A DNA stretch of 64,000 nt from a virus (IMGVR_UViG_3300008110_007313), one strand, 5' to 3'. Shown: positions 11,903-61,856, counted from the first letter of the stretch. Made by a program: numbers and translations. The notes: generated by a model not told the origin, from the letters alone.

Positions 11903-12145
11903 TTATTCCTCGTGTGCAGGGTTCGGAACATCAAGCTCGAATACATGATATCGAGGTCTTGGCGTGATAGTAGTGTCTCGAAGCATTTCCACTGTGCGTT
12001 GAAACTCAGCTTCTTGATGGGTGGCAAAAAATCCTGTGCCTAGAGTTGATGCAGTGCTACTGAAGCCGATACCAGTGAATGTCAGTCCAGTCTGACGAAT
12101 CAGTGCATATATTTTGAGTGTGCTAGGTGGTTTTAACGGTTCCAT
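11903..12145 (-). CDS. Hypothetical protein
   Basis: 80-aa ORF in the operon. Confidence 0.55.
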   Translation of the reverse strand: MEPLKPPSTLKIYALIRQTGLTFTGIGFSSTASTLGTGFFATHQEAEFQRTVEMLRDTTITPRPRYHVFELDVPNPAHEE

Positions 12146-12614: not shown

Positions 12615-13006
12615 GACACTTCACTCCTACCGTTGCCAATGTCTTTGCTTTGTACCCAGACGCCAGAGTTCTTAATTGCTTGCTCTTGCTCCCAAGTTTC
12701 CATCACAACGTGTCTGCACACATTCTGAAACCACTGATCTACAATGTCTGCATCTACCTTGCCCTGATATCCGGCTTTGATCAATCTGGCAACAAATATT
12801 TCGTTCCAATCCAGTTCAAAACTTCCTTGATGCAGATTAGCAGGATCAATATCCATGCCTAACACAGCAACATAAGGTTCACCAGCTTCTGTGGCCAACT
12901 GCTTGGCTGTTTTTTCAGGCGCTTTGACTTTAGGCGCAGGCGGTGCTTTGGCCTCTACAGGCTTCTCTACCTTCTTGGGTTTTAAGAAACGATCAAATAA
13001 TCCCAT
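12611..13006 (-). CDS. Hypothetical protein
   Basis: Start at 13006 (MGLFDRFLK), TAATG-coupled to queE. Confidence 0.7.
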   Translation of the reverse strand: MGLFDRFLKPKKVEKPVEAKAPPAPKVKAPEKTAKQLATEAGEPYVAVLGMDIDPANLHQGSFELDWNEIFVARLIKAGYQGKVDADIVDQWFQNVCRHVVMETWEQEQAIKNSGVWVQSKDIGNGRSEVS

Positions 13007-13851
13007 TATTTGCCCCAACCATTGCCCCAAAGATCCACGTGCAATCTTGGGCTGTACCAGTAACCACGCTTGAGTGCTTCGTCAGCCACGTTGATTCTAT
13101 TGCCGTCGTACACTGACACTACACCTCCCACAGGCATCACAAACACAGGACCAGCAAAGCCTGCTAGTCTATATTCGTCTACAGCTTGATCCAGTTCATC
13201 AAAGTCTGAGACTTTCTCAACCACAAACTTGAGATATGCAATGCCATGTGTTTCATAGTCAAACACAATTTCTGGACGAATAGCTTCTTCACGTTTTTCG
13301 CCGCTGACGCTGAGCTTGGGACTGACACTGAACGTGATTTCTCCATGCCAGTCGCTTAGATACATTCTAAACTCTCTTGACAGTTCTTGAGTACCGTTGG
13401 TCTCGAATGTGATGTGTCGCAGGCCACGAGCATGCAACAGGTCCAACAGTTCAGGATATGCTCGTTGCCAGCCCAGCAAAGGTTCACCACCTGTGATCAC
13501 CAAGTGTACAGGATTGCCATTGGGCTGTTGCCAGTTGCCATGCGGCAATAGTTCAGCCATTTTGTCTACTAGTTGTTCGGCAGTATAAGTTGGACTCAGG
13601 TGCTTGAACGCAGGATGCCAGCTTGCATAGCTATCACAGCCTGTGTTCACTAGTGGCAGCTCTTCAAATGTCTTGTACAGTTCCACCGTCTTGGCGACTT
13701 CATCTGCTTCTGTGCTCTTCTCGCCAGGCTTGCAACCAAATCCCGAACAGGTAAAGTTACATCCAAACATGCGAAGGAACACGCTGGGGACACCAACATA
13801 TCTGCCTTCACCTTGTGCTGAATAGAACAGTTCACTTACTTTAAATTTCAT
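13006..13851 (-). CDS. queE: 7-carboxy-7-deazaguanine synthase (radical SAM)
   Basis: ELFYSAQGEG..VG.PSVFLR..GCNFTC, ITGGEPLL, FETNGT, SVSPKL, RLHV.LWG. Confidence 0.92.
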   Translation of the reverse strand: MKFKVSELFYSAQGEGRYVGVPSVFLRMFGCNFTCSGFGCKPGEKSTEADEVAKTVELYKTFEELPLVNTGCDSYASWHPAFKHLSPTYTAEQLVDKMAELLPHGNWQQPNGNPVHLVITGGEPLLGWQRAYPELLDLLHARGLRHITFETNGTQELSREFRMYLSDWHGEITFSVSPKLSVSGEKREEAIRPEIVFDYETHGIAYLKFVVEKVSDFDELDQAVDEYRLAGFAGPVFVMPVGGVVSVYDGNRINVADEALKRGYWYSPRLHVDLWGNGWGK

Positions 13852-13852
13852 A

Positions 13853-14548
13853 TTATAGCCTTTTTAGTGTACAATCACTGGTTTTTATTTTAACCAGATT
13901 TTCAGATTCTTGTGCAATTTTAACACGAACTTCTTGTTTTGTCACGCTGCCTGGTAAAACTGTATCTAACCAGATTAGGTGTTCTGCTGGAGTAGGATGG
14001 CCGTCTTCACGATCAGCCCATCTATCTGGAAACAACACTTCTCTAAAACTTGGCAACCAGCCTTCAAACACATCTTTATATAGGTCAACCACATCTGGAA
14101 AGAAAGTTTTCTTGTCAGAATCCCATTGATCCATTTGCCAAGTAGTTTGATCCATACTGGTAAAATACCAATTCACGCCCTTGCATTGAAGAAATATTTT
14201 TACTGCTTTGATAAATGCAACATCTCTGATCAAATTTCCTCGCTCCGAAACTTGATGCTTTACAAACTTTGAATTATATAGTTCGGTAGTATACATGTTT
14301 CCGTAAGTTTGCCAGCAATTAGTGTAGCGATCTTCTCGCATGACATTGGTCCAACTTACAATGACAGTATCGCCGGGCACGAATTGATTACGTTGGTCTG
14401 CTTCCATTACACTGTTGAAGATGTAGTGATTACCTGCACCGCCTTGGCCCCAATTTTGGTATTCGTTGTAGTGGGCGCCTAGAATGTCTGCCCAGGTGCT
14501 CCAACGATAGTTTGTAAAACTACAACCAAAAGTAAACAGTCGACTCAT
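13853..14548 (-). CDS. SGNH/GDSL-like hydrolase (paralog 3)
   Basis: FTFGCSFT, NWGQGGAGN, SWT...RED, DGHPTPAEH. Confidence 0.6.
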   Translation of the reverse strand: MSRLFTFGCSFTNYRWSTWADILGAHYNEYQNWGQGGAGNHYIFNSVMEADQRNQFVPGDTVIVSWTNVMREDRYTNCWQTYGNMYTTELYNSKFVKHQVSERGNLIRDVAFIKAVKIFLQCKGVNWYFTSMDQTTWQMDQWDSDKKTFFPDVVDLYKDVFEGWLPSFREVLFPDRWADREDGHPTPAEHLIWLDTVLPGSVTKQEVRVKIAQESENLVKIKTSDCTLKRL

Positions 14549-15330
14549 ACTTTACGTGCTTTGACCAACAAATGCCAGCCCAGATACTCACGCACAGCCT
14601 GACGATGTGAGTCTGTCATGACTTCAAACCAAGGTTCAAGAACATAACGTCCTGCCTTGTACTCTTCTACGTTGTACATGAAACAGTGGTCTTGGCGTAG
14701 ACGTTCAATGTACCAACCGTTGTCGCTGTTCATTAGTTGATGAATTTCATCTTTGCTAAACGCTTGAGCATATGGACAGCCTGCTTGTGCTTCAAATTGA
14801 TCTAGACCCTTTTGGATCATAGCATACTTCCAGGAGTTCTTGGCATATACCATGTAACGGAACTCGCCACCTGGTTTAACCACAGCACGAACGTTGTCTA
14901 TGATCCGGTCAATACCCGGAAAGTGATGAATCACTCCATAGCTGTAAACCAAATCGAACTCGCCTAGCGTGGCCAAAGCAGCACCATCTGTAGCGTCAAT
15001 ATTGTAGAATTCGCCTTCAAGTCCTAGTGTTTCAAATCGTTGCTTGCTGAGTGCAATACTTTGATCGCTCAAGTCAATGCCTACATATTCGGCACCATGC
15101 TTGGCAAATTCTTCAGCGTCTGATCCAATGCCGCAGCCAATTTCCAGCACACGCTTGCCTGCCCACAAGTGGAAACCAGCAAACTCTGCAATGTGCGGTT
15201 CTACACGATATCTGCGTTCTGACACTTCACGAAAGAACTCTGGAGTGCCTATATCACTTTGTCCATGCTTGATGTTGCAAGGCTGTGTGTTCCAATAACG
15301 CTTAATACGTTCTTCAAGACTTTGCGACAT
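14545..15330 (-). CDS. Class I SAM-dependent methyltransferase
   Basis: VLEIGCGIG, GIDLS, FDLVYSYGVIHH, KPGG. Confidence 0.9.
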   Translation of the reverse strand: MSQSLEERIKRYWNTQPCNIKHGQSDIGTPEFFREVSERRYRVEPHIAEFAGFHLWAGKRVLEIGCGIGSDAEEFAKHGAEYVGIDLSDQSIALSKQRFETLGLEGEFYNIDATDGAALATLGEFDLVYSYGVIHHFPGIDRIIDNVRAVVKPGGEFRYMVYAKNSWKYAMIQKGLDQFEAQAGCPYAQAFSKDEIHQLMNSDNGWYIERLRQDHCFMYNVEEYKAGRYVLEPWFEVMTDSHRQAVREYLGWHLLVKARKV

Positions 15331-16177
15331 TAGTAGATCCTTTGAAGTGAGTATGCGGATTTTTAAACTGCACCATCTGTTTGTTTACATCGTTCTTGGC
15401 TAGCTTTTCCCAAGGATCCTGGGTACCAATGAAAACATTTTTTATAAACGAAATGTCTTGGCCAATACCATCTAAGTAGCCTGCAATTTTCAACGCATCT
15501 CTATGGCGTAGGTCCATTTGTTTAACACTGTGAAAATCGTTAGGATCACTAGGATTACCTTCTAGCATGGGACGATTTTGAAATGTAGCATCATTGTTGT
15601 TGCCAGTTAAATCATGTCGATCATGTAACACATCAACATCGATACGTTCCCAAATGTCCAGCATGTAGGCCTGTTGACTCAGCCATGCATCACTGATCTG
15701 GTGCGGACTTAGATAGCCCAGCAGGTCCAACCACTTGCGTGGCACAATAGGGAAGATGCTGTATGGATGATCTTTGTGTGTGTGGAACGCCAATAGTTTA
15801 AACTGTCCTTCCCAATCCATAATTTTGGTATCCCAGCTTTGGGTTTCCATCACTGCATCATCATTCCAAAACACTAACCAACGTGCATCACTTTTACGAG
15901 CCAGTTCGTTTACATACTCATTGAGACGAATGTATCCCATAGGATTGAATGTCATGGCTGTATAGTTGACTTTGTTAGCATCCAACCAGGGCTGTAGTTC
16001 TTCTACAAAATATTTTGTGCCAACTTCGTCGTCCTTGTCAAAGCCAAACATAATCTGAATGCGAATTGGAATGTCTGCCAATTCAATTAAACTTTTGACG
16101 CTGCGCTCTAGCATGCCATCTCTGCCCCTGGTGGGCAGTAGAATAGCAATATCATATTCAGGTGTGTTTTCTGTCAT
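15314..16177 (-). CDS. GT-A (GT2-like) glycosyltransferase
   Basis: ILLPTRGR, N.LA, WNDD DxD-like motif. Confidence 0.75.
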   Translation of the reverse strand: MTENTPEYDIAILLPTRGRDGMLERSVKSLIELADIPIRIQIMFGFDKDDEVGTKYFVEELQPWLDANKVNYTAMTFNPMGYIRLNEYVNELARKSDARWLVFWNDDAVMETQSWDTKIMDWEGQFKLLAFHTHKDHPYSIFPIVPRKWLDLLGYLSPHQISDAWLSQQAYMLDIWERIDVDVLHDRHDLTGNNNDATFQNRPMLEGNPSDPNDFHSVKQMDLRHRDALKIAGYLDGIGQDISFIKNVFIGTQDPWEKLAKNDVNKQMVQFKNPHTHFKGSTNVAKS

Positions 16178-16671
16178 GCAAATAAGTCCTCATTCCATTC
16201 TCTATGACCTTCTCTAAAAGCCATGTTTGCTTGTGTTTCGCGTACCTCCACTCGATAGCACCACAAGCGTTGTGCTTCACCCGGACCCCACATTTCAGGG
16301 ATGTACACGCCGTTGACATACTTGTACAGCATGTCGCTCAGGCCTTCGCAGCCTAGTTTTGGCAACACAACAATCTTGGCCATGTTCCGTTCTTGCAACA
16401 GTTGGAATGTTGCCATTTCTGGATCATCCTGTGCCACAATCAGTGTGTGATCAAATTGATCTTCTAGTGTTTTCTTGAGTTCTTTGAGACCACCATAGTC
16501 CGCGGCCCAGTTGCGCACATCCAGGTCATTGGTGCCAAAGTAAAACTTCATACTAAATGAGTAGCCATGAATTAAGTTACAGTGGCTGTCGGCACGCCAT
16601 TGTCTATACGCACATGGAAATGCGTCATGGTACTCTTTGGTCGAAGTGTATTTGTATATTACGGGTTGCAT
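16174..16671 (-). CDS. queD: 6-carboxy-5,6,7,8-tetrahydropterin synthase
   Basis: SHCNLIHGY, DYGGLKELK..LEDQFDH, EVRETQAN.A. Confidence 0.88.
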   Translation of the reverse strand: MQPVIYKYTSTKEYHDAFPCAYRQWRADSHCNLIHGYSFSMKFYFGTNDLDVRNWAADYGGLKELKKTLEDQFDHTLIVAQDDPEMATFQLLQERNMAKIVVLPKLGCEGLSDMLYKYVNGVYIPEMWGPGEAQRLWCYRVEVRETQANMAFREGHREWNEDLFA

Positions 16672-16746
16672 TGTTTGTCCTCCTATGACATTTTAGCATA
16701 GGCAGCAGAGTTTGTATAGCGGGATGATGCCGGACAGGCCGCTGGG
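16672..16746 (-). promoter_or_regulatory. Candidate structured leader RNA (riboswitch-like) of queD
   Basis: P1 AGCGG/CCGCU with an A-rich tail AUACAAACU; loop GGCAUCA complementary to UGCUGCC; CCUAUG/CAUAGG hairpin covering AGGAGG; TAAGTA box just upstream. Confidence 0.55.
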
Positions 16747-16753
16747 TTAATAC

Positions 16754-17155
16754 TTATACTGGCTTTGTGTAACCAGTAGCTTTATAGTTGGCTTGCCCGT
16801 GAATAACACCACGCACCCCGCCAATAGGATTGGCACAGTCTCCTACTCTACGTGGAATCAAATGCACATGCGGATACATCACTGTTTGTCCTGCAGCCTC
16901 TCCGCAGTTGATTCCTACATTGTAGGCGTCCCATTCACCTGACACAACTTTTTGGTGCCCAAATCGAAACGCATATTTCATTGCTTCTTCAATGATAACA
17001 TTTTTGTTCCAACGTGGCACAAATAACAAGTGCCCTTTGGTTACTGGATAAGCATCACGGAACACTGCCACGTGATAGTCCGAATGCTCTGTGGCCTCAT
17101 CTGACCATGGTGCGGCACCTGCGGCTGCGGCTTCTTCTAGTGTTTCGTATCTCAT
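16754..17155 (-). CDS. HIT-family hydrolase
   Basis: D.YPVT.GH.L.VP, G..AGQTV..PHVHLIPR. Confidence 0.92.
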   Translation of the reverse strand: MRYETLEEAAAAGAAPWSDEATEHSDYHVAVFRDAYPVTKGHLLFVPRWNKNVIIEEAMKYAFRFGHQKVVSGEWDAYNVGINCGEAAGQTVMYPHVHLIPRRVGDCANPIGGVRGVIHGQANYKATGYTKPV

Positions 17156-17976
17156 CTTGGGGCAAACTCCTGTTGTAATTTAATGTTGTCAAAGAACTCT
17201 TTCTTTACAGACGGATCAGTCTTGAATGCACCTTTGAGTACTGTGGTCTGTGTCAAGCTAGAGTGTGCCATGATGCCGCGATTCTCACAGCATCCGTGTG
17301 TGGCCTGAATGTACACTGCTACGTTTTCGGAGTCAGTAGCCTTGCTAATCTCGCGGGCAATGTCGTTACAAAGTTCCTCCTGGAGAGTTCCTCTTCGGGC
17401 GCACCATTGAGCGATTCGGGTATACTTGCTAAGACCGATAAGTTTATTAGCAGCAATAATACCAATATAAGCCACGCCAGCCACAGGTTGGTGATGATGG
17501 CTACACATACTGCGCAACTCACTACGTACAACAAGCATACCCTCATAACGATCCTGCGAATCGTTGGGAAATGCTGTGGCGTCTGGTCCTGGTTCATATC
17601 TACCTTCCATGATTTCGTTAAAGTACATCTTGGCCAGTCTACGTGCTGTGCCATGACTATTAGGATCATTTTCGCGATCAATCAGCAAACGATCGAGCAC
17701 CAGTTCAAATGCTTCTGTAGCTTCGTTTATCAAATGTTCTTTGTCTGTTTCGTGTAAGTAATCTGAGATGTTATCGCCAGCCCAGAATCTTTTACCATCT
17801 CGTTTCATTCTAGCACGGATTACATCTGAAAGATATGCTTCTTCGTAGCCTTTGTCGCTCATATCGTCTCCGGCTTTTACATACACTTCTTTGTTCAACG
17901 GTGTATATTCGTTTTTAACAAACTTCCGATTGTCGGAACCGTTTATTACAGGGTGCGGGATAAAGTCTTTTGTCAA
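17152..17976 (-). CDS. folE: GTP cyclohydrolase I
   Basis: SMCSHHHQP, GLSKY.R, QEEL, HGC...RG. N-terminal start uncertain (TTG at 17976). Confidence 0.95.
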   Translation of the reverse strand: MTKDFIPHPVINGSDNRKFVKNEYTPLNKEVYVKAGDDMSDKGYEEAYLSDVIRARMKRDGKRFWAGDNISDYLHETDKEHLINEATEAFELVLDRLLIDRENDPNSHGTARRLAKMYFNEIMEGRYEPGPDATAFPNDSQDRYEGMLVVRSELRSMCSHHHQPVAGVAYIGIIAANKLIGLSKYTRIAQWCARRGTLQEELCNDIAREISKATDSENVAVYIQATHGCCENRGIMAHSSLTQTTVLKGAFKTDPSVKKEFFDNIKLQQEFAPR

Positions 17977-18040
17977 TTTAGTTCTCCGAGTTAATGACGT
18001 GGATGTCTTTGTGCTATTGTAATGTATTTAGATCGCAGTG

Positions 18041-19126
18041 TCAATATCTACTGAATAACCATTGCTTCAATGGACCTAGGAAATATTGCCGATCTTGTAT
18101 GTGACGTTGATTGTGCTCTAATACGGGTTGTATTTTTTTGTACAGTTGCGGATGATTTTGATCGAACAACCACCTGACCTGTTCAAATGCCAATTCAAAT
18201 CTAAGAGTATTGTCTTCAATGAGATCATAGCTCTCATCAATGATACCGTCAAAGGTTTTGAACCCTAACTGTCTTAGGTCTTGCAGTTGTCCCTGTGCTC
18301 CAAAAAACACAAAAGGCCGACCTGCATAAAGTGGTTTTGCAGTTTTCTCGCTAAAAAAGAAATAATTTTCAAAATTAGTTTCTGTTACTATGCTGTACAG
18401 AGAACGTCGGTAAACCTCCCAAGGTACCAACTGTGCAACTCCCACACCTTGATTGGTTTTTACATAACCGTTGTACCCTTGATTCATTGTGATTGGTGCT
18501 AGGGTAGCTGTTGGCTCAAGATCATCTAGTTCGGGCGTTCGAAATATAGTCTTTACAATATCGGCTGAATATGCCGCAGTTGTTAGATTAACAAAGCATG
18601 CATTCAACAACATTTGGTGTTGCCCAAGTTTTTCAAAAACAAATCTTCTATGCATTTTCAATCCGCCTAGCAGAACATCAAACGTGCGTTGATGATCGCC
18701 GATGCTGTCAATTTGCTGTGTTTGATTATATCTCAGTATGTTTTGTAAAAAATACGGGTAAACATAGATGTTGTCATGACACGGCGGATATTTTTTATGG
18801 TAACCTCCGCACACAATCAAGATATTGCTGTTGTTGAATTTTTGTTGTAGTTTTTGTAGATATGTGTCTGACTCAGCATCTATGGCTTCTTCATCCAGCA
18901 CAATAACACTATTAAACTTAGACAAATCCAGATCTGGATATCGGTTGTCGGTAAATCTAACAGCACAGATTACCTTTGTGTAGTTTCGAACTTCGACTGG
19001 ATTCAGTTGAAAATTACTCAAGGTGGTATCATACACTGCAAACTTGTCAGAATCAAAAACTTCACCAGGATAATGCTCCAGTGATGTCAATGCATTATCA
19101 ATAGAAACAATGATGTTTTCTTTCAT
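18041..19126 (-). CDS. GT10/fucosyltransferase-like protein (paralog 3)
   Basis: YSIVTET...FFSEKTAKP...PF..FG....L..LGFKTF..IIDESYD. Confidence 0.5.
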   Translation of the reverse strand: MKENIIVSIDNALTSLEHYPGEVFDSDKFAVYDTTLSNFQLNPVEVRNYTKVICAVRFTDNRYPDLDLSKFNSVIVLDEEAIDAESDTYLQKLQQKFNNSNILIVCGGYHKKYPPCHDNIYVYPYFLQNILRYNQTQQIDSIGDHQRTFDVLLGGLKMHRRFVFEKLGQHQMLLNACFVNLTTAAYSADIVKTIFRTPELDDLEPTATLAPITMNQGYNGYVKTNQGVGVAQLVPWEVYRRSLYSIVTETNFENYFFFSEKTAKPLYAGRPFVFFGAQGQLQDLRQLGFKTFDGIIDESYDLIEDNTLRFELAFEQVRWLFDQNHPQLYKKIQPVLEHNQRHIQDRQYFLGPLKQWLFSRY

Positions 19127-19713
19127 CGATCTACTATGGTTATTTCACGTAGATCTGGGTAAGTCACTGGCACAGGTTTGGGTTTGGTTTCTTTGATGCC
19201 TTCTAGTAAAGCAAGGCCTTGTATAGCTTCTTCAGGTGTGGGTTTGTAGTGATAGCCCACATGAAATGTTTTTTGAATTTGCCAAGGTGAGACAGCAAGA
19301 TCACGACCGTCATAACGTTGACGGATTATGGCATCATATGCTCGTGCATCATCTAGCAAGATGGCACCACCACGACCTATGTGCAAGGGCTTGGTATGTC
19401 CAAAACTCAAGCACTGCATGGACCCGGCACGATACATGTTGTGTTCCAGTCTGCGAGCACTGTCCCAGATTCTAGTGCCATGAAACCTATACTCTCCGCA
19501 CCATTCTTCTTCCTTGTAGTAGTACTTGATGCCCAGCTTGTGCATGGTCATGGGGATGCTGAGATAGGTATACGGAGTCATTACAACTTCACGCACACGT
19601 TCATGTCGCAGGCACAGCTCAATGGCATGTGTGCAACAGTCAGTCATGATGGCATAAGGTGCGCCAGTGAACTCTGCCAGCTCTTGCTCAAATTTAAGAA
19701 TTTTATCAAACAT
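19123..19713 (-). CDS. Short DegT/DnrJ/EryC1/StrS-like PLP aminotransferase
   Basis: FEQELAEF.G, CT.A.ELCL, WDSA, LSFGHTKPL..GRGGA. Only 196 aa; start at 19713. Confidence 0.75.
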   Translation of the reverse strand: MFDKILKFEQELAEFTGAPYAIMTDCCTHAIELCLRHERVREVVMTPYTYLSIPMTMHKLGIKYYYKEEEWCGEYRFHGTRIWDSARRLEHNMYRAGSMQCLSFGHTKPLHIGRGGAILLDDARAYDAIIRQRYDGRDLAVSPWQIQKTFHVGYHYKPTPEEAIQGLALLEGIKETKPKPVPVTYPDLREITIVDR

Positions 19714-20650
19714 TGTACCAAGCCCATGCATGACGAATCATGTCATCTAGTTCATGATGTTTCCATTTGCCTGCAACCAATTCAAACTTGGCAGCACTGG
19801 CAGTCAGCACGGGCGGATCACCTGCTCGCTTTTCGCCTAATCGAATCATCACAGCATCGCCAGTGACCTGTTGTGCTGCATCAATAATTTCTCTGTTGCT
19901 GGTGCCTGTGTTGGATCCAAGATTGTATACACCAGCAGTAACCGACTGATCCAATGCCATGACATGTGCTCTAGCAATGTCTTCCACATGCACATAGTCA
20001 CGTACACAGGTTCCGTCAGGAGTGGGATAGTCAATACCGTTGAGCACGAAATCTTTGCTGTCACGAATGCTTTCTAACACTCTAGCAATGATGTGTGTGG
20101 CCCCAGGTTCTTGGCCGTGTCGTGCCCGGCTGTCAGCACCGCAGGCATTGAAATACCTAAACGCCACATAGTCCAGACCATATGCACGATGATAGCTTTC
20201 CAAGATCTGCTCTACCATCAGCTTGCTTTCACCGTAGGGACTGATGGGCTCTCGTGGATCAACTTCGTGGCACGGAGTCATGATAGGCTCACCGTAGACC
20301 GCAGCACTTGAACTAAAAATAAACCGCGTCCGGGGCACGGCTGCCATTATGATGTTCAGCAAGTTCAGTGTTTTGACCACATTGTTGTGGTAGTAGTCGC
20401 TGGGGTTTTTGATACTAGGCCCAACCAAGCTGGTACCAGCGCAATGTACAATAGCATCAGGACGAATATCCAGCAGTCTACGATATGACTCGTCGCTGTC
20501 AAAGTCTGCCTGCACAAAACTCATTGTACCCTGCAGGTGCCGGGGTAAAGGTCTGCGATCAATGCCAGTTACTGAGTGGCCAGCATCTTTGAGTTGTAGA
20601 GCAATTTGTCCGCCAATATAGCCAGCAGCGCCTGTTACCACAACGTTCAT
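19706..20650 (-). CDS. galE: UDP-glucose 4-epimerase
   Basis: VTGAAGYIG, FSSSAAVYG, YGESK, FRYFNACGAD, DGTCVRDYVHVED.A.AH. Confidence 0.92.
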   Translation of the reverse strand: MNVVVTGAAGYIGGQIALQLKDAGHSVTGIDRRPLPRHLQGTMSFVQADFDSDESYRRLLDIRPDAIVHCAGTSLVGPSIKNPSDYYHNNVVKTLNLLNIIMAAVPRTRFIFSSSAAVYGEPIMTPCHEVDPREPISPYGESKLMVEQILESYHRAYGLDYVAFRYFNACGADSRARHGQEPGATHIIARVLESIRDSKDFVLNGIDYPTPDGTCVRDYVHVEDIARAHVMALDQSVTAGVYNLGSNTGTSNREIIDAAQQVTGDAVMIRLGEKRAGDPPVLTASAAKFELVAGKWKHHELDDMIRHAWAWYNV

Positions 20651-21861
20651 GATTCAATCTTTACAACTTGATATTTTTCGTGAGCAGCGTGATCACGATA
20701 ACGATTGCCTGCTCGATTCCATTGCTCACCTTGACCAAGAATGATATCAACCACACGATCAACTGTGCCGTTGTTCCAGTCTGAGATCAGACCCATGTTG
20801 TGATGCGGTTCTTGCAAAAGATTTTGCATCTTGTGATAAGCGTCATCTATACTCCAAGGTACATATAATCGATTAGGATCATTTGCAAAAGTTTCAGGAA
20901 AACTACGATATGCAGGATAAAGAACGTTACACCCCAGGGTGTCGGCTTCGGATACAGTGTTAGATACCCAGTCTTGAAGAGCACAATTAAAGAGAACACG
21001 AGTATCATTAAGATGGGCGTAGTAATCATTTTTGCTTATGTTGTCGTAGATTTTGAGCTTGCCTTCTGCCTCCATACGGCGGGCACGTTCAACATACGCT
21101 GGATTGTTGGATCGTAGAGGTCCGCCACTGTAAATTGCAAACTCACACGGTTCGCTGGTGAGCTCACCATACATTTCAATAAGATCCATAAAGAAGCCAG
21201 GTTGCTTTTCTTGGTCGAACCTAGCTGCGAAACCCACCCTCCGCGGACGGCTATCAAACACCTTGATGTTTTCTGCACCGCCAATGCGTTCAAGAACTTC
21301 TGCTTTTCCAAATGCAAGGCCGGAAATGTTGTAGATCGGAGCAGTCCATCCAGCAATACGCATGTGGGCGACCATTTCCTCATTGGTAGCCAGTACTGCA
21401 CCCCCCGAGAAAGCCACCATTTCATTGACCATTTGTTCATATAAATTCATCCAGCGAGCCATGCCCCAAACATGCACAAAGTCATCGGGGTCGATGGCCT
21501 GTGCTAGACAGCGTACAAAGATACGTGGACATTGTTCTCGGGGGATTTGATTCATAATGTAACCGAGACTCTCGATGCCGGGTTGAAACATGTCTTCAAA
21601 GTAGATAACATCCGCACTAGTAACTTCTCCGTTTTTCATCAGTTGAACCAAATTCATCATCTGGCTCATGCTAAAATAACTGCGTCCGTGTGCGTCTAGC
21701 ACTTGGCCTACAGAAATAGCTTGGCTATTATCAATGGTTGTTCCGGGAACATACACAACGTCTAGACCTCGGCGGTCAAACACACGTCGGTTCCACTCTG
21801 TGAGCTGTAGTGTATAGCGGGCTTCGTAGCTCTCTAGGCCCATGTAAAACAGCTTTCTCAT
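20647..21861 (-). CDS. GT-B-fold glycosyltransferase
   Basis: FAARFDQEKQPGFF, QDWVSNTVSEA..LGC..LYP..RSFPE; start at 21861 (MRKLFYMG) with ATGA coupling. Confidence 0.7.
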   Translation of the reverse strand: MRKLFYMGLESYEARYTLQLTEWNRRVFDRRGLDVVYVPGTTIDNSQAISVGQVLDAHGRSYFSMSQMMNLVQLMKNGEVTSADVIYFEDMFQPGIESLGYIMNQIPREQCPRIFVRCLAQAIDPDDFVHVWGMARWMNLYEQMVNEMVAFSGGAVLATNEEMVAHMRIAGWTAPIYNISGLAFGKAEVLERIGGAENIKVFDSRPRRVGFAARFDQEKQPGFFMDLIEMYGELTSEPCEFAIYSGGPLRSNNPAYVERARRMEAEGKLKIYDNISKNDYYAHLNDTRVLFNCALQDWVSNTVSEADTLGCNVLYPAYRSFPETFANDPNRLYVPWSIDDAYHKMQNLLQEPHHNMGLISDWNNGTVDRVVDIILGQGEQWNRAGNRYRDHAAHEKYQVVKIES

Positions 21862-22085
21862 GCTGGACGATATCCTGCAAAGCGTCGAGTGTCCTCGTCC
21901 CACATGTTCTTGGCATTCTTGCCTTGAGCATATTTTGAGTACTGTTGCCAGGCATAACTCTTGAAGTTATACAGGTCCGCTTCGTTGAAACGGTATCCGT
22001 AGTCTACACAAAACTCTTGCAGTTTCTCAAGGTCTTCGAAGATCTCGCGAACACGAGCGTTGGGTTTGATTGTGATTTTTGCCAT
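21858..22085 (-). CDS. Hypothetical protein
   Basis: 75-aa ORF between the T-fold gene and the GT gene. Confidence 0.7.
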   Translation of the reverse strand: MAKITIKPNARVREIFEDLEKLQEFCVDYGYRFNEADLYNFKSYAWQQYSKYAQGKNAKNMWDEDTRRFAGYRPA

Positions 22086-22098
22086 GATAAAATAATCC

Positions 22099-22551
22099 TT
22101 AAATGGCTAGTTGTTGAACAGGTCGGTGAGTATTATATTTAATGAGTGCGCCGTTTTCACCATCTTCGGCAACCTCAATCCAGACCGCACGGCCAGGATA
22201 CTTTGCAGCGATCTGGTCATACAGATCGTCTGACATCATTTCACAGCTTTTGTAATCAAGCTGTAGGATACTGTCTCGGTAGAGATTTTCAAGCCATCGT
22301 TTGAACTGAATGAACTCAATGTCTCGGTCGTTGTGTAAGACATCAATCCATACACGGAAATGAAAAATATGACGATGAGGGACACCAAGGAAACTAACGT
22401 CATATTCATCGCCTGTGGCCAGTGCAGGGTCGGTTGCTGCGGCTGGATAGCGATGAATACCTTCCTTACAAAACGTAACCCAAATTTTACGTTTTGCATG
22501 TTGTTTGATTCTTTCGCGAGATTCGATTTGTGCTTGTTGGTGTTGATTCAT
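22099..22551 (-). CDS. Second QueD-like T-fold protein with an LxxxHRHxF motif (candidate CDG decarboxylase, DpdL-like)
   Basis: EGIHRYP...LGVPHRHIFHFRV...EFIQFKRWL...SCE parallels the PTPS H...HxH...DF..LK layout but lacks the QueD catalytic Cys. Confidence 0.6.
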   Translation of the reverse strand: MNQHQQAQIESRERIKQHAKRKIWVTFCKEGIHRYPAAATDPALATGDEYDVSFLGVPHRHIFHFRVWIDVLHNDRDIEFIQFKRWLENLYRDSILQLDYKSCEMMSDDLYDQIAAKYPGRAVWIEVAEDGENGALIKYNTHRPVQQLAI

Positions 22552-22572
22552 AGTGTTATAATAGCAAGTTAG

Positions 22573-23697
22573 TTAACGATTGTCAATGTAAGAATATACA
22601 TCTGGAAAAATTAGTCGGCTATCTAGTCCCCGACGTTGATCTAATTGTTGAATAAAATCCAAGAACACCTGTGGACCGACTGATTGCTTGGTCTGTTCAA
22701 GATTTCGAACAAGTCCTTGGATACCACTTAGACTCGAGTACTTAGGCTGTTGCGCACAGTCTAGTATTTTTTCTACAAAGTCTTGTCCTATCACTCTAGG
22801 GTCAAGTTCTAGTTGTGGTTTAGTGCCTTGATAGTACAAGTTAACCGAGCACTGTCCTGGCGCATATCCACGTTCCAAGATCCAGTCTACAAAGTTCCAC
22901 ATGCTCAATCCGTTTAATGCACACAACACACAGTTGAATCCAATTTGGTGTCGATCAAAGTCTTGTTCAATCTGTGTAAGATTTTCCACAAATTCAGACC
23001 AGTGGCCTCCATGTCTAATATAGTCAAATCTATTTCCCACGTCCTCGGCGCTGACAATCCAGAAAGTATTGCGAAACTTTTGCAGTTGTTGATACACTGC
23101 ATTAGTTGGCCGAGCATGACTGATATTGCTGTTTACGAAAATTCTTACCGTGGGTTTAACCTTGTAGAGTTCTTCCAGCAGTTCTGCATTTTCTTTCATC
23201 AGCAGAGGTTCGCCGCCAGCAAGATACACATGGTCAACATGATCTAGATTGCTCAAAATGTATTCTTTGAGCTTGGTCACTTGTTCAGAGTCCATGCGCT
23301 GATGAATGCCGAGTTCGGCTGCCCAGCTAGAACTAACAACATGCCCGCAGTATACACAAGCAAAATTGCAGGTGTTATGCCAACGTAGATCAAGATATTG
23401 AATTTGAAATTTGTTTACACTGTCGAATTTATCAGCAGTTTCGGGTCGGTAGTAGTCGTGTAAAAATCCATCTCGCATGGAATGCTGACTATCAGGCCAG
23501 CACTGTCTGCAAGAGTCAACTAGATTGCCTTCCAACATCTGCTGTTTAATCCAGATGTTTTTGTTGCCGTTGAACACATTAGAAATGTCATCGTCAACGG
23601 TGCCGATGTCTTCGCTGGCTACACAACAGTTGCGAATAGATCCAGTGGGATCTACATAGATAGAGTTCCATGCCGCAGGACAAAATGACTGGTTCAT
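22573..23697 (-). CDS. Radical SAM protein with an N-terminal SPASM/Twitch-like Cys cluster (paralog 1)
   Basis: FCPAAW...NCC...CRQC, CNFACVYC, AGGEPLL. Confidence 0.85.
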   Translation of the reverse strand: MNQSFCPAAWNSIYVDPTGSIRNCCVASEDIGTVDDDISNVFNGNKNIWIKQQMLEGNLVDSCRQCWPDSQHSMRDGFLHDYYRPETADKFDSVNKFQIQYLDLRWHNTCNFACVYCGHVVSSSWAAELGIHQRMDSEQVTKLKEYILSNLDHVDHVYLAGGEPLLMKENAELLEELYKVKPTVRIFVNSNISHARPTNAVYQQLQKFRNTFWIVSAEDVGNRFDYIRHGGHWSEFVENLTQIEQDFDRHQIGFNCVLCALNGLSMWNFVDWILERGYAPGQCSVNLYYQGTKPQLELDPRVIGQDFVEKILDCAQQPKYSSLSGIQGLVRNLEQTKQSVGPQVFLDFIQQLDQRRGLDSRLIFPDVYSYIDNR

Positions 23698-24212
23698 GCT
23701 ACGCTATCGTTGGTATACTTAGACCAGTCAGTAAATTTATTACGATTCATTAGCGTATGTAGGCTGTGACACCACACTCCAGGATTGGTAGCATCAAAGT
23801 CCTTGTCATCAATCTTTACTGTGGCATTGTAGTTCAGCAAGCGAACATATGGCATCTTGACCGAAATCATAGGAATGAAGTTGTTGTATTCGCAGAGACT
23901 ACTTTCAGCTAGTCCCTCTACAGATTTTACATCAATGTCTAAAGTGCAAAGATATCCTTTTTCAAGAAAAGGCACAATCATGTCTGTCCATGATTTCCAT
24001 GTAGCAAAGTCGTTGACTTCAGGATTTGGAAAACTCATGTTAGCACCAAAATAGATATGTTCAACTCCGCTGGGATTTCGATCAAAGTGGTGTGCAATCT
24101 CATTCACAGGTTGTATGCCAACTACAAATAGTGTTTGTTTTCCAAACGCTGGAGTATGTTCTACTTCAGTTCCGGTAAAGAACTCAACGTTGTTGTGACC
24201 TTCTCTATTCAT
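23694..24212 (-). CDS. Hypothetical protein coupled to dpdA
   Basis: 172 aa, ATGA overlap with the dpdA stop. Confidence 0.75.
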   Translation of the reverse strand: MNREGHNNVEFFTGTEVEHTPAFGKQTLFVVGIQPVNEIAHHFDRNPSGVEHIYFGANMSFPNPEVNDFATWKSWTDMIVPFLEKGYLCTLDIDVKSVEGLAESSLCEYNNFIPMISVKMPYVRLLNYNATVKIDDKDFDATNPGVWCHSLHTLMNRNKFTDWSKYTNDSVA

Positions 24213-25783
24213 TGCTGTTCCTGTTCAAGTTGATCCAATGCTGCGGTATCTAATTGTACATTATCATCTAAATCACTGTCAACTTCTGGTTCGTCAAAAC
24301 TAAACAGTGCGTTGAATTGTGTACGGGCATTCATAGTTTTCTTGCCTTTGAATCCTCGTGTGCCCACAATCTCCATCCAATAGCTTGAATATGTTTCGAT
24401 AATAGCTTCGGCTGTGGCACGATCTGGTGCCGCAAAGATCGCTTCCACAATGTCTTCAAACTTGGCATAGTCTCCACCCGACCTACGCATCATAGCAGGA
24501 TGTTCGCCAGCATCAAAGCGTCGATTGGCTTCTTGTACCGCAGTCAAGTGCATCCAAACATTGTGTCCCATGAGCAATGCATATGAGAAACTATCCCATG
24601 AAGTCTTGCCTTCCTTGCCAATCTTGTTTAGATCGCCGGGTTTGTAGATGCAGATATCCTTCATCTTAAACAAGTCGCTTAACGGACTGTCTTCCCAGCG
24701 TGGATAGATACCGTCAGCAACTACGCCTGTTGACCACTTTCGTGTGTCTGTGGCGTATTTTTTGTCATCGGCTGAAGGAGCCATGCGATACGACCATTTC
24801 GAGTCGTGCTCGAAGACATTTTCAAAATAGACTTGTCCATTTGCTGTTGCAAGGAACGGGCTGGCGCAGTCAAACGAGATAGTGAACGACGGGTTGACAT
24901 ATTTTCTTACGGCTCTCTGAATTACAGTTAATAAAACGGCCCACTCCAACTTGGAGGTTCCCAAGAAGTGCATCCAATCATGCACACCTTCTTGTAGTAG
25001 ATTATCATAACGCAATGCTACCAGGCGCTTTAGCACCAGGTGTACATCACACATGTTCTGACCACCCATTGACCAGCCATCAAAGTGTGTGTCTGGATAC
25101 TTCACAGGATCGCAGTATTCCTTCATGGTTTCATACCATGTATCGGCACTGGTATGATTGTCGCCTTGTAACACGTTCAAGAAACGAGCACCACCATTCT
25201 TCACACCTCGACGATGACGCATGAAGTATTCGTTATTGAACTTGGTAGCATCCACAGCTTCTTGCAGTGTGGTAATCTGACAGGCTGCACTGGCTTTCTT
25301 GTCATGAATAACCCAGGTAGGAATATCCAAGATCATGCCGTAGTCAGCAACTGTATCTAACCAGTTCAGGATCAGTTCACGCTTCTTTTGTGCCTTAGCA
25401 CAACCTGAGTTGGCTTTCCAGTCGCCTTCCCACAGGCCCTTGGCAATCTGGAATCCACCTGAGTCACCTAGTATAAATGTGCCTGATTCTCGATTGCGAA
25501 CCATGTCCTCTGACCAGTCCTGCTTGTTCAAGTCCAAGTTAGCGTGTCCACCAGAATACAGACTCCAACGATAGGGAAACAAGGCCTTTTGACTGTTGAG
25601 CCAGTTCATTTGTTCCATGTCCTTGAATCCTGTTGGGAATCTAGCAGGATCTACATATGGACCATTCACTGGATCGCGTTGCTTGCCTACGAATGTAGCA
25701 TAGAAGCCAGAGATAGCTGGCAAGAACACAGCATAGTCTGACTGCTTGGCAGTTAAGTTGTCTTGAACTACAGGCTCAGTCAT
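24209..25783 (-). CDS. dpdA: TGT-fold deazaguanine transglycosylase (DpdA-like)
   Basis: ILGDSGGFQ, MILDIP, NVLQG, DGWSMGG, HFLGTS, SFDCASP; sits with folE/queD/queE and the replication genes. Confidence 0.8.
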   Translation of the reverse strand: MTEPVVQDNLTAKQSDYAVFLPAISGFYATFVGKQRDPVNGPYVDPARFPTGFKDMEQMNWLNSQKALFPYRWSLYSGGHANLDLNKQDWSEDMVRNRESGTFILGDSGGFQIAKGLWEGDWKANSGCAKAQKKRELILNWLDTVADYGMILDIPTWVIHDKKASAACQITTLQEAVDATKFNNEYFMRHRRGVKNGGARFLNVLQGDNHTSADTWYETMKEYCDPVKYPDTHFDGWSMGGQNMCDVHLVLKRLVALRYDNLLQEGVHDWMHFLGTSKLEWAVLLTVIQRAVRKYVNPSFTISFDCASPFLATANGQVYFENVFEHDSKWSYRMAPSADDKKYATDTRKWSTGVVADGIYPRWEDSPLSDLFKMKDICIYKPGDLNKIGKEGKTSWDSFSYALLMGHNVWMHLTAVQEANRRFDAGEHPAMMRRSGGDYAKFEDIVEAIFAAPDRATAEAIIETYSSYWMEIVGTRGFKGKKTMNARTQFNALFSFDEPEVDSDLDDNVQLDTAALDQLEQEQQ

Positions 25784-26505
25784 TATTTGCTTTGTGCAGG
25801 AAGAATGTAGTTGTAAACAGCCAATCCACTGTCCACAGTGATCTGTGCAGCACCTGAATCACTGATCTTCATGGTCTTGTTACCGCTGAGACTCAAGATA
25901 TTAGCAATTTGAATAGCAGGATAACTCCAAGCACGTTTGAGTTGTCCGCTAACATCGTGTTGAAATACAAAGTTGCCAGCATGGCTTGAATGATCACCAA
26001 AGTAAAACTTGAGATCGTTGTCTTCGGTCTTGACTTGAAAATTAGGCTCTTCTGCATTGGCGCTCATCTGCATCTTGAGGCGCATGATACTGGCCACTGT
26101 GGGTTCAAATTCAATGTTCCAGGGCACCTGACTCATTTTAGCTGTTTTGAGTTTGTCGCTGACAATCTCTGAAGCCATGAAACGATAGTTGTTTTTAAAG
26201 TCGCCAGTTTTGTTTTCAAAATTGATACCATCGGGCGATCCGTCAGCCTTGCGGGTAATAGCAAGTTTGGCATTTTCTGCGTACTCGGGCAATTTGAGCA
26301 AGGTCTTGAGTTTGTTCAAGTTAGGCATACCAAACGTGCCTACAAAGTCGGGCACAGGATTGGCAAACTGCCCTTTGATTACTACGCTAAGGTCACTGGC
26401 AAGGCCTTCAATCTGTGTAGTGTTTTCGTCGCCCACAATCTTGATCAGGTCAATGCAACCAAGATCAAAAGTGTGTTCTACCAAGTCAAGTAAGTTATCT
26501 CTCAT
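25783..26505 (-). CDS. Probable DNA polymerase sliding clamp (gp45-like)
   Basis: 240-aa beta-rich protein two genes downstream of polB; Y.Y..PA C-terminus. Positional plus weak motif evidence. Confidence 0.5.
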   Translation of the reverse strand: MRDNLLDLVEHTFDLGCIDLIKIVGDENTTQIEGLASDLSVVIKGQFANPVPDFVGTFGMPNLNKLKTLLKLPEYAENAKLAITRKADGSPDGINFENKTGDFKNNYRFMASEIVSDKLKTAKMSQVPWNIEFEPTVASIMRLKMQMSANAEEPNFQVKTEDNDLKFYFGDHSSHAGNFVFQHDVSGQLKRAWSYPAIQIANILSLSGNKTMKISDSGAAQITVDSGLAVYNYILPAQSK

Positions 26506-26555
26506 AATGTTCTCCTAAGTGTTTAAGTTTACAGGGTTTATTTAGAAAATGCAAG

Positions 26556-27491
26556 TCATTTGCGAACAATTTGTGCTAGAGTTTGTCCACCTCGCAAACT
26601 AGTAATTTGTCCAGGTTTGCGAAACTCTAACCAAGCTAGGTCCCCTTTTCCGATATAGTGATAGATCAAATCAAACCCTATGTCTTCGGCGTGGTTCTTG
26701 ATTCTATGGCCCGGGGTGTAGCACATAAAATTTTTTTCAAATAACTCAACTCCATGGGCTTGATCACAGTCGTTGTAGGTAAACAACAAGACTCCGCCAG
26801 GCCTTAGGCACTCATAGAGTTCTTTGAGATAGCGTTCAATCAATTCAATGGGTCGATAGTTGAAAAAATTATATGAAAAAATGCAACCAAACTGTTGTTG
26901 CGGTAGTTCATTGAGCATGGTATAGCGTGACTCGTCAATCTGGTAGCAACGTAATCTCGCACGATACTGCTCGTTGAACTTGTTAACAGCCGGCAACATC
27001 AAGTCTTGATTGACATCCAAAACATACAACGGATCCAAGGGCACCATGTCTTCGATGAAGGATTCGTGTCCGGGATGTATAATCATCCCGGGAGTGCGCC
27101 AGTCAGTGTAGTTTCTCAATCGACTGCGTAGAATCATGTTGCTTTCGTCGTCGATTCCCAGTCTGCGATTTAACACATGTTCGTCGGTGTCATACTGCAT
27201 GGCAGTTTGGTATAATTTGGTGCTGTTTTTGTAATAGTCTTTTTCTTGGTTACGTACGGTTTGTGCCAGCTCATCTTTTAAATTTTTAAACACCTGTTGA
27301 TATTGATGCAAAGCTTCGATCACAGTGTCGTGTCGTTTTTGAATACGTGCTTTGTAAAATCCAATGTTGGTGTCGTGTGCAGAAACTACATAATTTATAG
27401 CCGACAGGTTGTGCTGAGCCTGGCCACTAACTTCTGAAAAGTCAATGGCTTCAAGTTCATTAAGATATCTAACTATGTTGCTCAGGCTCAT
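26556..27491 (-). CDS. Protein with a C-terminal class I methyltransferase-like domain and an N-terminal helical region
   Basis: CIFSYNFFNY...LKELYECLRPGGVLLFTY. Confidence 0.6.
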   Translation of the reverse strand: MSLSNIVRYLNELEAIDFSEVSGQAQHNLSAINYVVSAHDTNIGFYKARIQKRHDTVIEALHQYQQVFKNLKDELAQTVRNQEKDYYKNSTKLYQTAMQYDTDEHVLNRRLGIDDESNMILRSRLRNYTDWRTPGMIIHPGHESFIEDMVPLDPLYVLDVNQDLMLPAVNKFNEQYRARLRCYQIDESRYTMLNELPQQQFGCIFSYNFFNYRPIELIERYLKELYECLRPGGVLLFTYNDCDQAHGVELFEKNFMCYTPGHRIKNHAEDIGFDLIYHYIGKGDLAWLEFRKPGQITSLRGGQTLAQIVRK

Positions 27492-60489: not shown

Positions 60490-60546
60490 GAACTTCCTTT
60501 TTTTAACAACACAAAGTTTTTTTATTATAACGCAATTTCACATGAA

Positions 60547-61329
60547 CTAGCGATGTTTTTGGATGGCTTCGGCTAAATCACTGCTAATTTTATCCGGAAT
60601 CTGGGCCAGTAGTCGTACCATCATATCACCTTTTCTGCCCTGTTGATCTCGTAGTCCTTGCTCTCGTAGTCGCAACTGTGTGCCCGGCTGACAACGTGCC
60701 GGCACACGAATGGTTAATTTTTCACCGTAGATATTTTCTACCACAATGTCACCGCCCAGTATCAAATCCCAAACCACCACACGATGATCTCTAGTGAGAT
60801 TCAGGGCCTGTCTGTGCCACACAGAATCTGGATGTATTCTAAAACTAATTACCAAATCTTGGCCACCAGGTCCCACACCCGGATATTGAACATTGTCACC
60901 ATCATTGAGTCCCAAGGGAATGTCAATTTCCAAAGTTTGATTGCCTTGAGCACTGTTTACTGCAATGGTTTTGCGTCCGCCTTGGGCAACATCTTGTAGA
61001 CGCACCCACAGACTCATACGAAGATGATTGCGTCTGGGATGTTGTCCAAATCCTGCGCCGCCGAACATCTGACTAAAAATGTCATTGATGTTAACATGTC
61101 CGCTGTCGCTGAATCCACTGAAGCCGTTGAACTGTGGTCTGGGATTGTCGTATTCACTTCGTTTCTGGTCATCGCTGAGTACAGCATAGGCAGCTTGTAC
61201 TTCTTGGAATCGAGCCTTGTCTCCTCCTTTGTCAGGATGGTGCTGGCTGGCTAACCGACGATAGGCCTTCTTGATTTCATCTTGACTGGCACCGCGAGAT
61301 ACTCCCAATGTTGCATAGTGGTCTGTCAT
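60547..61329 (-). CDS. Class II J-domain protein (DnaJ/CbpA-like, no Zn finger)
   Basis: DHYATLGV...HHPDKGG; G/F region; C-terminal peptide-binding domain; start at 61329. Confidence 0.9.
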
Positions 61330-61856
61330 TGTTCTTCTAACATTTTTTTGACTTCTAAACACTTGTCACATTTGCCGCAGTTCTTATAAAAAAAGCAACT
61401 GCTGACCAAGGGTTTGACATCATCGGGAATCTGATTCCATTGTTCCCGTTTGCTCATGTGTTCAAAAGGACGATAAAATTTTACATTAGGATGCAACAGC
61501 GTCCAGGCCTCAAACACGTTGGCTGGTCTTGCAGGTCCGTCTATATCGCCGCTGTGTCGACCTGCCCAGACTTCAGTGATTTTTGGATCCTTGGCACACC
61601 ATAGATTGGCCACGCTAATAAAGGTTCTAATTTGATGCACAAAGTGATAGGGTTCAGGTTCAATGGGAATGTGTATGCGTGCATAATTTATTTTGAACCC
61701 AAGTTTCTCTGCAATTTTTTCAGCAGATTCTTTCCTAAATGTAGGTATGCCGTAGGGATAGGTAGGTTCGATTGTGACCACAGTATCCATGGGATCTGCT
61801 TCACACAGTAGCAAGGTGCTTTCTACACCGCCGCTGAAAAGAATAAGTCTGCTCAT
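61326..61856 (-). CDS. Divergent QueC-like PP-loop ATPase
   Basis: [18 protein letters not shown]...CGKCDKC; lacks YGQRH, PARN and YPDC. Confidence 0.6.

Follow-up and report, generated by a model that had tools for sequence, protein, structure and literature searches.

The 64,000-nucleotide stretch of IMGVR_UViG_3300008110_007313 analysed here (the window) carries, at 13006-25783, a cluster of 7-deazaguanine synthesis genes interleaved with genes for sugar enzymes. This arrangement raises the question of which base the virus places in its DNA and whether that base bears a sugar. The core of the cluster probably belongs to a known kind, the DpdL-type deazaguanine DNA modification. What is new here is a conserved glycosyltransferase (GT) of the GT4 type within a DpdL-type module. 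Taken as a whole, we favour, with modest confidence, the reading that an uncultured freshwater jumbo phage, a distant relation of Pseudomonas phage PA5oct, here encodes a DpdL-type module for 7-deazaguanine DNA modification whose GT4 enzyme would glycosylate the deazaguanine. A sugar-bearing deazaguanine in the DNA is, taken by itself, plausible but less likely than not.

Family searches recovered every gene that a sequence-only reading of the window had named, each on the minus strand and where it had been placed. The genes that make up the core encode the following proteins, with lengths in amino acids (aa); CDG is 7-carboxy-7-deazaguanine and TGT is tRNA-guanine transglycosylase.

13006..13851, minus strand: QueE-like radical SAM enzyme (CDG synthase); phrog_2076 QueE-like, 5.5e-55
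16174..16671, minus strand: QueD (CPH4 synthase); Pfam PTPS, 3.7e-15, 56.4 bits against a cut-off of 22.4; PHROG QueD-like, 1.3e-35
17152..17976, minus strand: GTP cyclohydrolase I, FolE; Pfam GTP_cyclohydroI, 2.2e-39, residues 97-265; NCBIfam FolE models, up to 1.6e-39
20647..21861, minus strand: GT4-type GT-B glycosyltransferase (P0129), 404 aa from its likely start; AlphaFold2 model
22099..22551, minus strand: DpdL, a QueD paralogue and proposed CDG decarboxylase (P0127), 150 aa; LxxxHRHxF motif and homology
24209..25783, minus strand: DpdA-like DNA transglycosylase of TGT fold (P0001), 524 aa; AlphaFold model

Judged by family membership, FolE, QueD and QueE would together convert GTP to CDG. 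FolE carries an additional N-terminal stretch of about 90 aa. The QueD motif reads CNLIHGY, that is CxxxHGY against the usual CxxxHGH; because the QueD proteins of Cellulophaga phage phiST, Acidovorax phage ACP17 and Synechococcus phage BUCT-ZZ01 have the same variant, it marks a phage subtype and not a defect. The QueE-like protein matches NCBIfam QueE models at 1e-11 to 1e-14, below their cut-offs, and the solved QueE 6nhl at 8.2e-9, and its family profile matches the QueE of PA5oct, ACP17, phiST, X1 and BUCT-ZZ01. As a side observation, queE and queD of BUCT-ZZ01 are separated by a gene whose annotation reads xanthine-guanine phosphoribosyltransferase (locus L086, 7093-7554), which hints that some systems may work at the nucleotide level, by a pre-replicative deazapurine route.

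The sequence-only reading had left the pathway either to stop at CDG or to branch from it. It is the branch that the cluster encodes: because a DpdL homologue is present, the expected base is derived from 7-deazaguanine (DG) and is not dCDG, and dCDG as the final base is unlikely. Residues 55-63 of P0127 read LGVPHRHIF, which fits the LxxxHRHxF signature found in place of the CxxxHGH of QueD. By tblastn the protein is 53% identical to ACP17 gp125, 35% to phiST CGPG_00067 and 60% to PA5oct gp166, and it is conserved throughout. DpdL has been defined by this motif and proposed as the CDG decarboxylase giving 2'-deoxy-7-deazaguanine (dDG), with the ACP17 and phiST proteins named (Hutinet, Cui et al., NAR 2023, PMC10516641). 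In phiST DNA about 100% of the dG is replaced by dDG, using FolE, QueD, QueE, DpdL and the transglycosylase DpdA3. From its family membership, the DpdL encoded here would likewise remove the carboxyl of CDG to leave 7-deazaguanine, as proposed for phiST.

Two further features of DpdL-bearing clusters were observed elsewhere. In some phages and contigs the DpdL domain lies within a longer protein of 265-393 aa (L095 4345-5238; L096 4322-5119; L090 9221-10402; L094 9428-10312), which suggests fusion to another domain. In X1-type clusters, a PAPS-reductase-like PP-loop protein of about 175 aa is conserved close to FolE and the GT (L087 8338-8871; L095 3918-4433; L096 3777-4325; L092 11099-11923); it could activate the CDG carboxylate.

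The next step, insertion into a nucleic acid, would fall to P0001, a protein with no sequence match in Pfam, PHROG, NCBIfam or the PDB. Its AlphaFold2 model, built from an alignment of 62 representatives at 26-60% identity, reaches a pLDDT of 90.8, and all 50 of the Foldseek PDB matches listed are tRNA-guanine transglycosylases at probability 1.0. Invariant among the 62 relatives are D107 (in GDSGGFQ), S108, G110, H272 and D305 (in SFDC), and D153 is nearly so. We presume that the GDSGGFQ, LDIPT and SFDC stretches resemble the catalytic-aspartate motifs of bacterial TGT, and take D107, D153 and D305 to be the equivalents of TGT D102, D156 and D280. Profile comparison ties the P0001 family to the DpdA of the ACP17/X1/BUCT-ZZ01 type (hhalign 97.5%, E 9e-12) and more weakly to phiST DpdA3 (78%). 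BLASTP of P0001 against ACP17 gp123 and phiST DpdA3 is not significant, the link being by profile and fold methods only. On its modelled structure P0001 is a TGT-fold DpdA, its tie to the DpdA3 subfamily being tentative at an hhalign value of 78%. It would exchange guanine in phage DNA for 7-deazaguanine, protecting that DNA from restriction.

The fold itself is that of an enzyme of tRNA, and one might suppose that P0001 serves a phage-directed, queuosine-like tRNA modification while the DNA stays canonical. We regard this as very improbable. The Pfam TGT model (PF01702) has no match to P0001 at E up to 10, and none in G001, a 331-kb IMG/VR contig rated 95% complete whose DpdA is 86% identical to the copy in the window. 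The zinc site of TGT, CxCxxC...H, finds no invariant or nearly invariant cysteine among the 62 aligned relatives, and the profiles just described lead to phage DpdA families. P0001 is also linked to two replication genes.

27488..30154, minus strand: family B DNA polymerase, polB, first gene of the run on this strand; Pfam DNA_pol_B, 9.7e-35, and DNA_pol_B_exo1, 1.2e-19
25783..26505, minus strand: clamp-like protein, 240 aa, adjoining polB; phrog_12062, 3.1e-32

The polymerase is about 50% identical to that of PA5oct, and the clamp-like protein is homologous to the 'sliding clamp beta' of Phosso (6.6e-33) and to PA5oct gp170. PA5oct also encodes a P0001 homologue (35% identical). According to a 2025 preprint that does not name the base (PMC12191111), the DNA of PA5oct withstands G-site restriction enzymes but is attacked by nucleases sensing hypermodified DNA. 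The earlier claim that DNA and not tRNA is the target thus gains indirect support from the missing Pfam TGT match, the lack of invariant zinc cysteines, the position beside polB and the behaviour of PA5oct DNA.

What sets this module apart is the GT4 gene. Its open reading frame (ORF) extends to 21903, with 21861 the likely true start. The AlphaFold2 model of P0129 has a pLDDT of 84.7, and its top PDB and Swiss-Prot matches by Foldseek are all GT4 enzymes (BshA, MshA, PimA, glycogen synthase) at probability 1.0. At the sequence level 31 of the 37 aligned family members match Pfam Glycos_transf_1 (PF00534); P0129 itself reaches only 17 bits with PF13692, short of the cut-off of 27. By eye, it has D-W-V-S-N-T-V-S-E, a D-x7-E, where its relatives have E-x7-E.

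A GT4 enzyme beside FolE and a PTPS-family protein also brings to mind a glycosylated pterin, like the cyanobacterial biopterin glucoside, as the product in place of a DNA base. Pterin synthesis too begins with FolE and PTPS, the tetrahydrobiopterin glucosyltransferase of Synechococcus PCC 7942 ranks 30th among the structures matched by the GT4 model, and that organism is the host of BUCT-ZZ01. We nevertheless find the idea hardly credible: many other GT4 enzymes outscore the pterin enzyme, conservation of the GT goes together with that of QueE, DpdL and the TGT-fold protein, the PTPS protein has the phiST QueD motif, and no sepiapterin-reductase-like gene was seen in the cluster.

Homologues of the GT4 protein stand beside DpdL or DpdA in six cultured lineages belonging to different virus families, namely PA5oct, ACP17, Xanthomonas X1 (with BUDD), BUCT-ZZ01, Phosso and BCSR5; the BUCT-ZZ01 protein is 64% identical. 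The ACP17 homologue is gp124, between DpdA and DpdL, and PA5oct gp167 occupies the same position; in both phages the GT gene overlaps the dpdA stop codon. Whole-genome family-profile searches found exactly one copy in PA5oct, ACP17, BCSR5 and Phosso, at the deazaguanine locus each time. Three large metagenome contigs chosen solely for encoding an X1-like GT all encode a P0001-family DpdA and/or DpdL, FolE or QueE alongside (3/3). Among 80 relatives of the window the conservation of GT4 equals that of DpdA. We regard GT4 as a conserved component that is built into the module in this version. Compared by length, the transglycosylase, where one was identified, is long (416-540 aa) in four GT-bearing lineages and of the short DpdA3 form (259-290 aa) in three GT-free ones.

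The remaining sugar and accessory genes of the cluster behave differently.

13853..14548, minus strand: 231-aa protein, no assigned function; 54% identical in G001
14545..15330, minus strand: class I SAM-dependent methyltransferase; Pfam Methyltransf_12, 7.5e-20; phrog_22502, 8.8e-60
15314..16177, minus strand: GT2-like glycosyltransferase; phrog_14945, 6.6e-12; Pfam Glycos_transf_2, only 0.12
16754..17155, minus strand: HIT-family (HinT-like) nucleotide hydrolase or transferase; Pfam HIT, 1.7e-9; NCBIfam HinT, 3.3e-12, below cut-off
18041..19126, minus strand: 361-aa protein, no assigned function, variable; present in few relatives only
19123..19731, minus strand: short DegT/DnrJ-like protein, 202 aa; Pfam DegT_DnrJ_EryC1, 1e-16, part of the profile only
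19706..20650, minus strand: UDP-glucose 4-epimerase, GalE; TIGR01179, 300.8 bits against a cut-off of 262.3; Pfam Epimerase, 2.2e-58

The GalE, DegT-like, GT2-like, HIT, methyltransferase and 231-aa genes are conserved inside this phage group. The expectation that sugar genes accompany dpdA across genomes was borne out for GT4 by the six cultured lineages and the three contigs, and not for GalE, the DegT-like protein, GT2, HIT or the methyltransferase, which have no full counterpart outside the group. The galE gene overlaps that of GT4 by 4 bp. The DegT-like protein, 50-94% conserved in relatives, has weak NCBIfam matches to sugar aminotransferases. Neither the 231-aa nor the 361-aa protein has a family match in Pfam, PHROG, NCBIfam or a weak-hit Pfam scan; in the 361-aa sequence an FEN...SEK stretch, by eye, may resemble a fucosyltransferase motif.

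Does the conserved GT4 act on the base? The rival answer is that the DNA contains plain dDG, as in phiST, while GT4 and the sugar genes make glycans on virion proteins, the host envelope or a small molecule, linked to the module by shared early expression or by history. This is a possibility to be taken seriously, if a minority one. One ground for it is phiST, which reaches about 100% dDG with no GT, and several further points weigh, with it, against a sugar on the deazaguanine. Whole-genome family-profile searches did not find GT4 in phiST, RHph_I1_18, Bakedbeans, Ahp1, D479 or MA9V-3; phiST makes plain dDG and the five others bear DpdL, all without this GT, so GT4 is not needed for the base itself. 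At C7, 7-deazaguanine has neither a hydroxyl nor a side-chain amine, and no group on it stands out as an acceptor; a sugar would have to be joined to the pyrrole carbon by a C-glycosidic bond, be linked through N2 or O6, or follow a hydroxylation by one of the proteins with no assigned function. GT4 enzymes often use small-molecule acceptors, so DNA need not be the acceptor. GalE, GT2, HIT and the methyltransferase are lineage-specific: for these, the DegT-like protein and the 231-aa protein no full counterpart was found near DpdL in other phage lineages, the sole outside match being a partial one of a 172-aa PA5oct ORF to the GalE N-terminus. The window is moreover rich in GT and sugar-enzyme genes outside the cluster, with more of them at 1296-2372, 51876-52757 and 53929-56598. 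The decarboxylase activity of DpdL has never been reconstituted (PMC10516641), and an unlinked QueC-family gene, described below, might in this genome draw CDG off towards ADG or preQ0.

Set against plain dDG are the distribution and placement of GT4 itself: single-copy in the four whole genomes searched and confined there to the deazaguanine locus, adjoining DpdL or DpdA in six cultured lineages of different virus families and in all three contigs, and overlapping the dpdA stop codon in ACP17 and PA5oct. In addition, co-expression of ACP17 DpdL and DpdA without the GT produced no dDG (PMC10516641).

On the reading that we favour, GT4 would attach a hexose to the deazaguanine, whether this is already in the DNA or still a free base awaiting insertion. 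This step is the weakest link of the proposal. In the literature the usual sugar acceptors in DNA, 5-hydroxymethyl or 5-hydroxy pyrimidines, depend on thymidylate-synthase homologues. None was found in G001, ACP17, X1 or BUCT-ZZ01, which leaves the deazaguanine, its precursors or a non-DNA molecule as acceptor. GalE would supply UDP-galactose and be coupled to GT4 in this phage group; the sugar would here be a galactose-type hexose, perhaps extended by the GT2-like and variable GT genes. Lengthening or trimming of that sugar may be the role of the lineage-specific genes for the GT2-like, short DegT-like and methyltransferase proteins and of the variable 361-aa gene. PA5oct, whose DNA resists G-site restriction enzymes (PMC12191111), has DpdA, GT, DpdL and QueE in the same order as the window. 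That a sugar-bearing 7-deazaguanine replaces guanine in the packaged DNA of all phages with a long DpdA, GT4 and DpdL (this lake group, PA5oct, ACP17, X1, BUDD, BUCT-ZZ01, BCSR5 and Phosso) is a bolder statement, which we advance tentatively and consider plausible but less likely than not.

Could the pathway instead run on through QueC? The sequence-only reading had noted that the cluster lacks queC. This is so, and it is also true of the 95%-complete G001, which has neither QueC nor QueF and one PTPS gene; the window as a whole does encode an unlinked QueC-family protein. QueF and ArcS are, as also noted there, absent from 13006-25783.

61326..61856, minus strand: short QueC-family protein (P0520), 176 aa; Pfam QueC, 25.4 bits against a cut-off of 22

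Were P0520 to complete the classical route, the DNA would carry dADG or dPreQ0 and not a DG-derived base. The protein scores above the Pfam cut-off, has a PP-loop-like SGGVES near its N-terminus (SGGxDS in QueC) and CGKCDKC, a C-x2-C-x2-C zinc motif, near its C-terminus, and its Atlas look-alikes are viral QueC-domain clusters. These points are outweighed, in our judgement, and we hold the classical route to be improbable. P0520 matches only positions 150-207 of the 210-position profile, the C-terminal quarter that forms the zinc-ribbon part. Its gene lies 35 kb from the cluster, and the genes next to it encode DnaJ and ClpB-like chaperones. PA5oct, ACP17, X1, BUCT-ZZ01 and the phage collection lack it, as does G001, which keeps the full cluster, and a pattern search of IMG/VR found no relatives. 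DpdL is conserved throughout. We read P0520 as a lineage-specific accessory gene. Two related candidates were set aside: a weak PP-loop match in G001, considered as QueC, reads as NAD synthetase-like, and the similarity of P0520 to the PAPS-reductase-like PP-loop proteins of X1-type clusters is not significant.

Three further genes lie between GT4 and dpdA.

21858..22085, minus strand: conserved 75-aa protein, no assigned function; 30-85% identical in relatives, mostly 58-85%
22573..23697, minus strand: twitch-domain radical SAM protein, its gene being a variable insert; NF033640, 3.7e-73, above cut-off
23694..24212, minus strand: conserved 172-aa protein, no assigned function; 4-bp overlap with dpdA

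The 172-aa protein occurs, at 49-81% identity, in every relative whose flanking sequence is long enough, and is homologous to ACP17 gp122, encoded directly upstream of ACP17 DpdA (profile, 1e-44); it has no family match, and its Atlas scores of about 0.8 are at noise level. For the 75-aa protein Pfam, PHROG and a weak-hit Pfam scan gave no family match. The twitch radical SAM gene, which sits between the 172-aa gene and dpdL, is missing or only 19-38% identical in relatives; like the 361-aa gene it varies even inside the group. A paralogue of it (NF033640) lies at 30535-31650 (minus) and a third radical SAM gene at 52812-54026 (minus).

Other genes of the window were noted in passing. Those for sugar-related proteins outside the cluster encode a second GT4 (1296-2372, minus), an Anp1-like protein (51876-52757, minus), an 889-aa protein with cytidylyltransferase and GNAT domains (53929-56598, minus) and an RfaE-domain-II-like nucleotidyltransferase (12123-12614, minus). 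A MazG/PRA-PH-like protein (8703-9128, minus), a NUDIX protein (45098-46024, minus) and the HIT protein (16754-17155, minus) are nucleotide hydrolases with a possible part in removing dGTP or processing deazapurine nucleotides; in phiST, too, a MazG/dUTPase-like gene adjoins dpdL. A ClpB-like ATPase, DnaJ, a ferritin-like protein, an AhpC peroxiredoxin and a fatty-acid desaturase are phage-encoded, at 58216-61362, 36064-36567 and 522-1061 (all minus) and at 42785-43525 (plus). Auxiliary host-like genes such as chaperones, peroxiredoxin and desaturase are typical of jumbo phages.

From 9.5 to 36 kb the window is a near-unbroken run of minus-strand genes. A scan for promoters and terminators gave counts not above those of shuffled sequence. 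Sigma-70-like promoter matches of 11/12, in total no more numerous than in shuffled sequence, lie directly upstream of dpdL (22586-22558), folE (18044-18016) and the 172-aa gene (24282-24253), all on the minus strand. Rfam gave no match in 12000-27000 at E up to 1, the spacer between the HIT gene and queD (16672-16756) included.

The source group, as judged from protein relatives, is one of very abundant uncultured jumbo phages with contigs reaching about 365 kb. For the DpdA-like protein and for the GT, about 8000 relatives each were scored in metagenomes, and the window stretch was detected in sequencing runs that many studies had labelled as lake water or freshwater. The entire cluster is present in G001 with its gene order unchanged. 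Megablast found no nucleotide match to the cluster region among cultured phage records. The closest cultured relative is Pseudomonas phage PA5oct, whose genes for polB, the clamp-like protein, the DpdA-like protein, DpdL, QueE and the exonuclease come in the same order.

All glycosylated DNA bases in the papers that we searched are pyrimidines. That search, which did not cover every journal, found no paper on a glycosylated deazaguanine in DNA and none noting a GT in these clusters. If the proposed glycosylation is true, no DNA would have been described before with a glycosylated purine, and the base would represent a new nucleic-acid chemistry and a new evasion of restriction, CRISPR and modification-dependent nucleases. 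It would explain why ACP17 DpdL and DpdA failed to make dDG without the neighbouring genes, and would account for the DNA modification of PA5oct that END nucleases sense. The sugar question is directly testable, because at least six carriers are in culture, among them PA5oct, which matters for phage therapy. The module is also abundant, DpdA and the GT each having thousands of close metagenome relatives.

Among characterised systems, that of phiST is one close match: it shares FolE, the CxxxHGY QueD, QueE, the LxxxHRHxF DpdL and a TGT-like transglycosylase (PMC10516641), in a cluster likewise free of QueC and beside replication genes. However, the phiST transglycosylase has 259 aa against 524 aa here, the two being only weakly related (hhalign 78%), and GT4 and the 172-aa protein, part of the module here, are absent from the entire phiST genome. 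GalE and the DegT-like, GT2-like, methyltransferase and HIT proteins are additions of the cluster described here.

Also close to the module are ACP17 gp122-gp126 and PA5oct gp168-gp162, which share the core of DpdA-like protein, GT4, DpdL and QueE. The 172-aa protein has a homologue in ACP17 too, and in PA5oct the likeness extends to gene order over a longer stretch, from polB and its clamp-like neighbour through the exonuclease. Both lack the GalE, DegT-like, GT2, HIT and methyltransferase genes of this cluster, apart from the PA5oct ORF that partially matches the GalE N-terminus. In PA5oct, unlike here, the PTPS/QueD gene (gp230) lies outside the cluster (PMC12191111), and FolE and QueD were not found in the 25-kb stretch searched. 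In the papers searched, the modified base of neither PA5oct nor ACP17 has been chemically identified.

The tRNA-queuosine mannosyltransferase QTMAN offers a precedent of another sort, being a GT4 enzyme that acts on a 7-deazaguanine derivative. QTMAN clusters occur among the Atlas look-alikes of our GT4 protein (score 0.97, ranks 32 and 44), yet generic GT4 clusters rank above them. The kinship that these look-alikes suggested was rejected, as none of the 37 aligned members matches QTMAN_N (PF12038) at E up to 0.1. The QTMAN acceptor, moreover, is the cyclopentenediol of queuosine, which cannot be made in this phage.

A parallel in purpose is the post-replicative glycosylation of phage DNA by the T4 alpha- and beta-glucosyltransferases, acting on 5-hydroxymethylcytosine (5hmC), and the arabinosylation of 5-hydroxycytosine (PMC13326640). 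There, as here, a phage GT-B enzyme and a gene for sugar-nucleotide supply stand beside base-modification genes, and the purpose would be the same, the evasion of restriction. In those systems a thymidylate-synthase homologue produces the pyrimidine whose hydroxyl receives the sugar, whereas the module described here would place it on a purine analogue without an evident hydroxyl.

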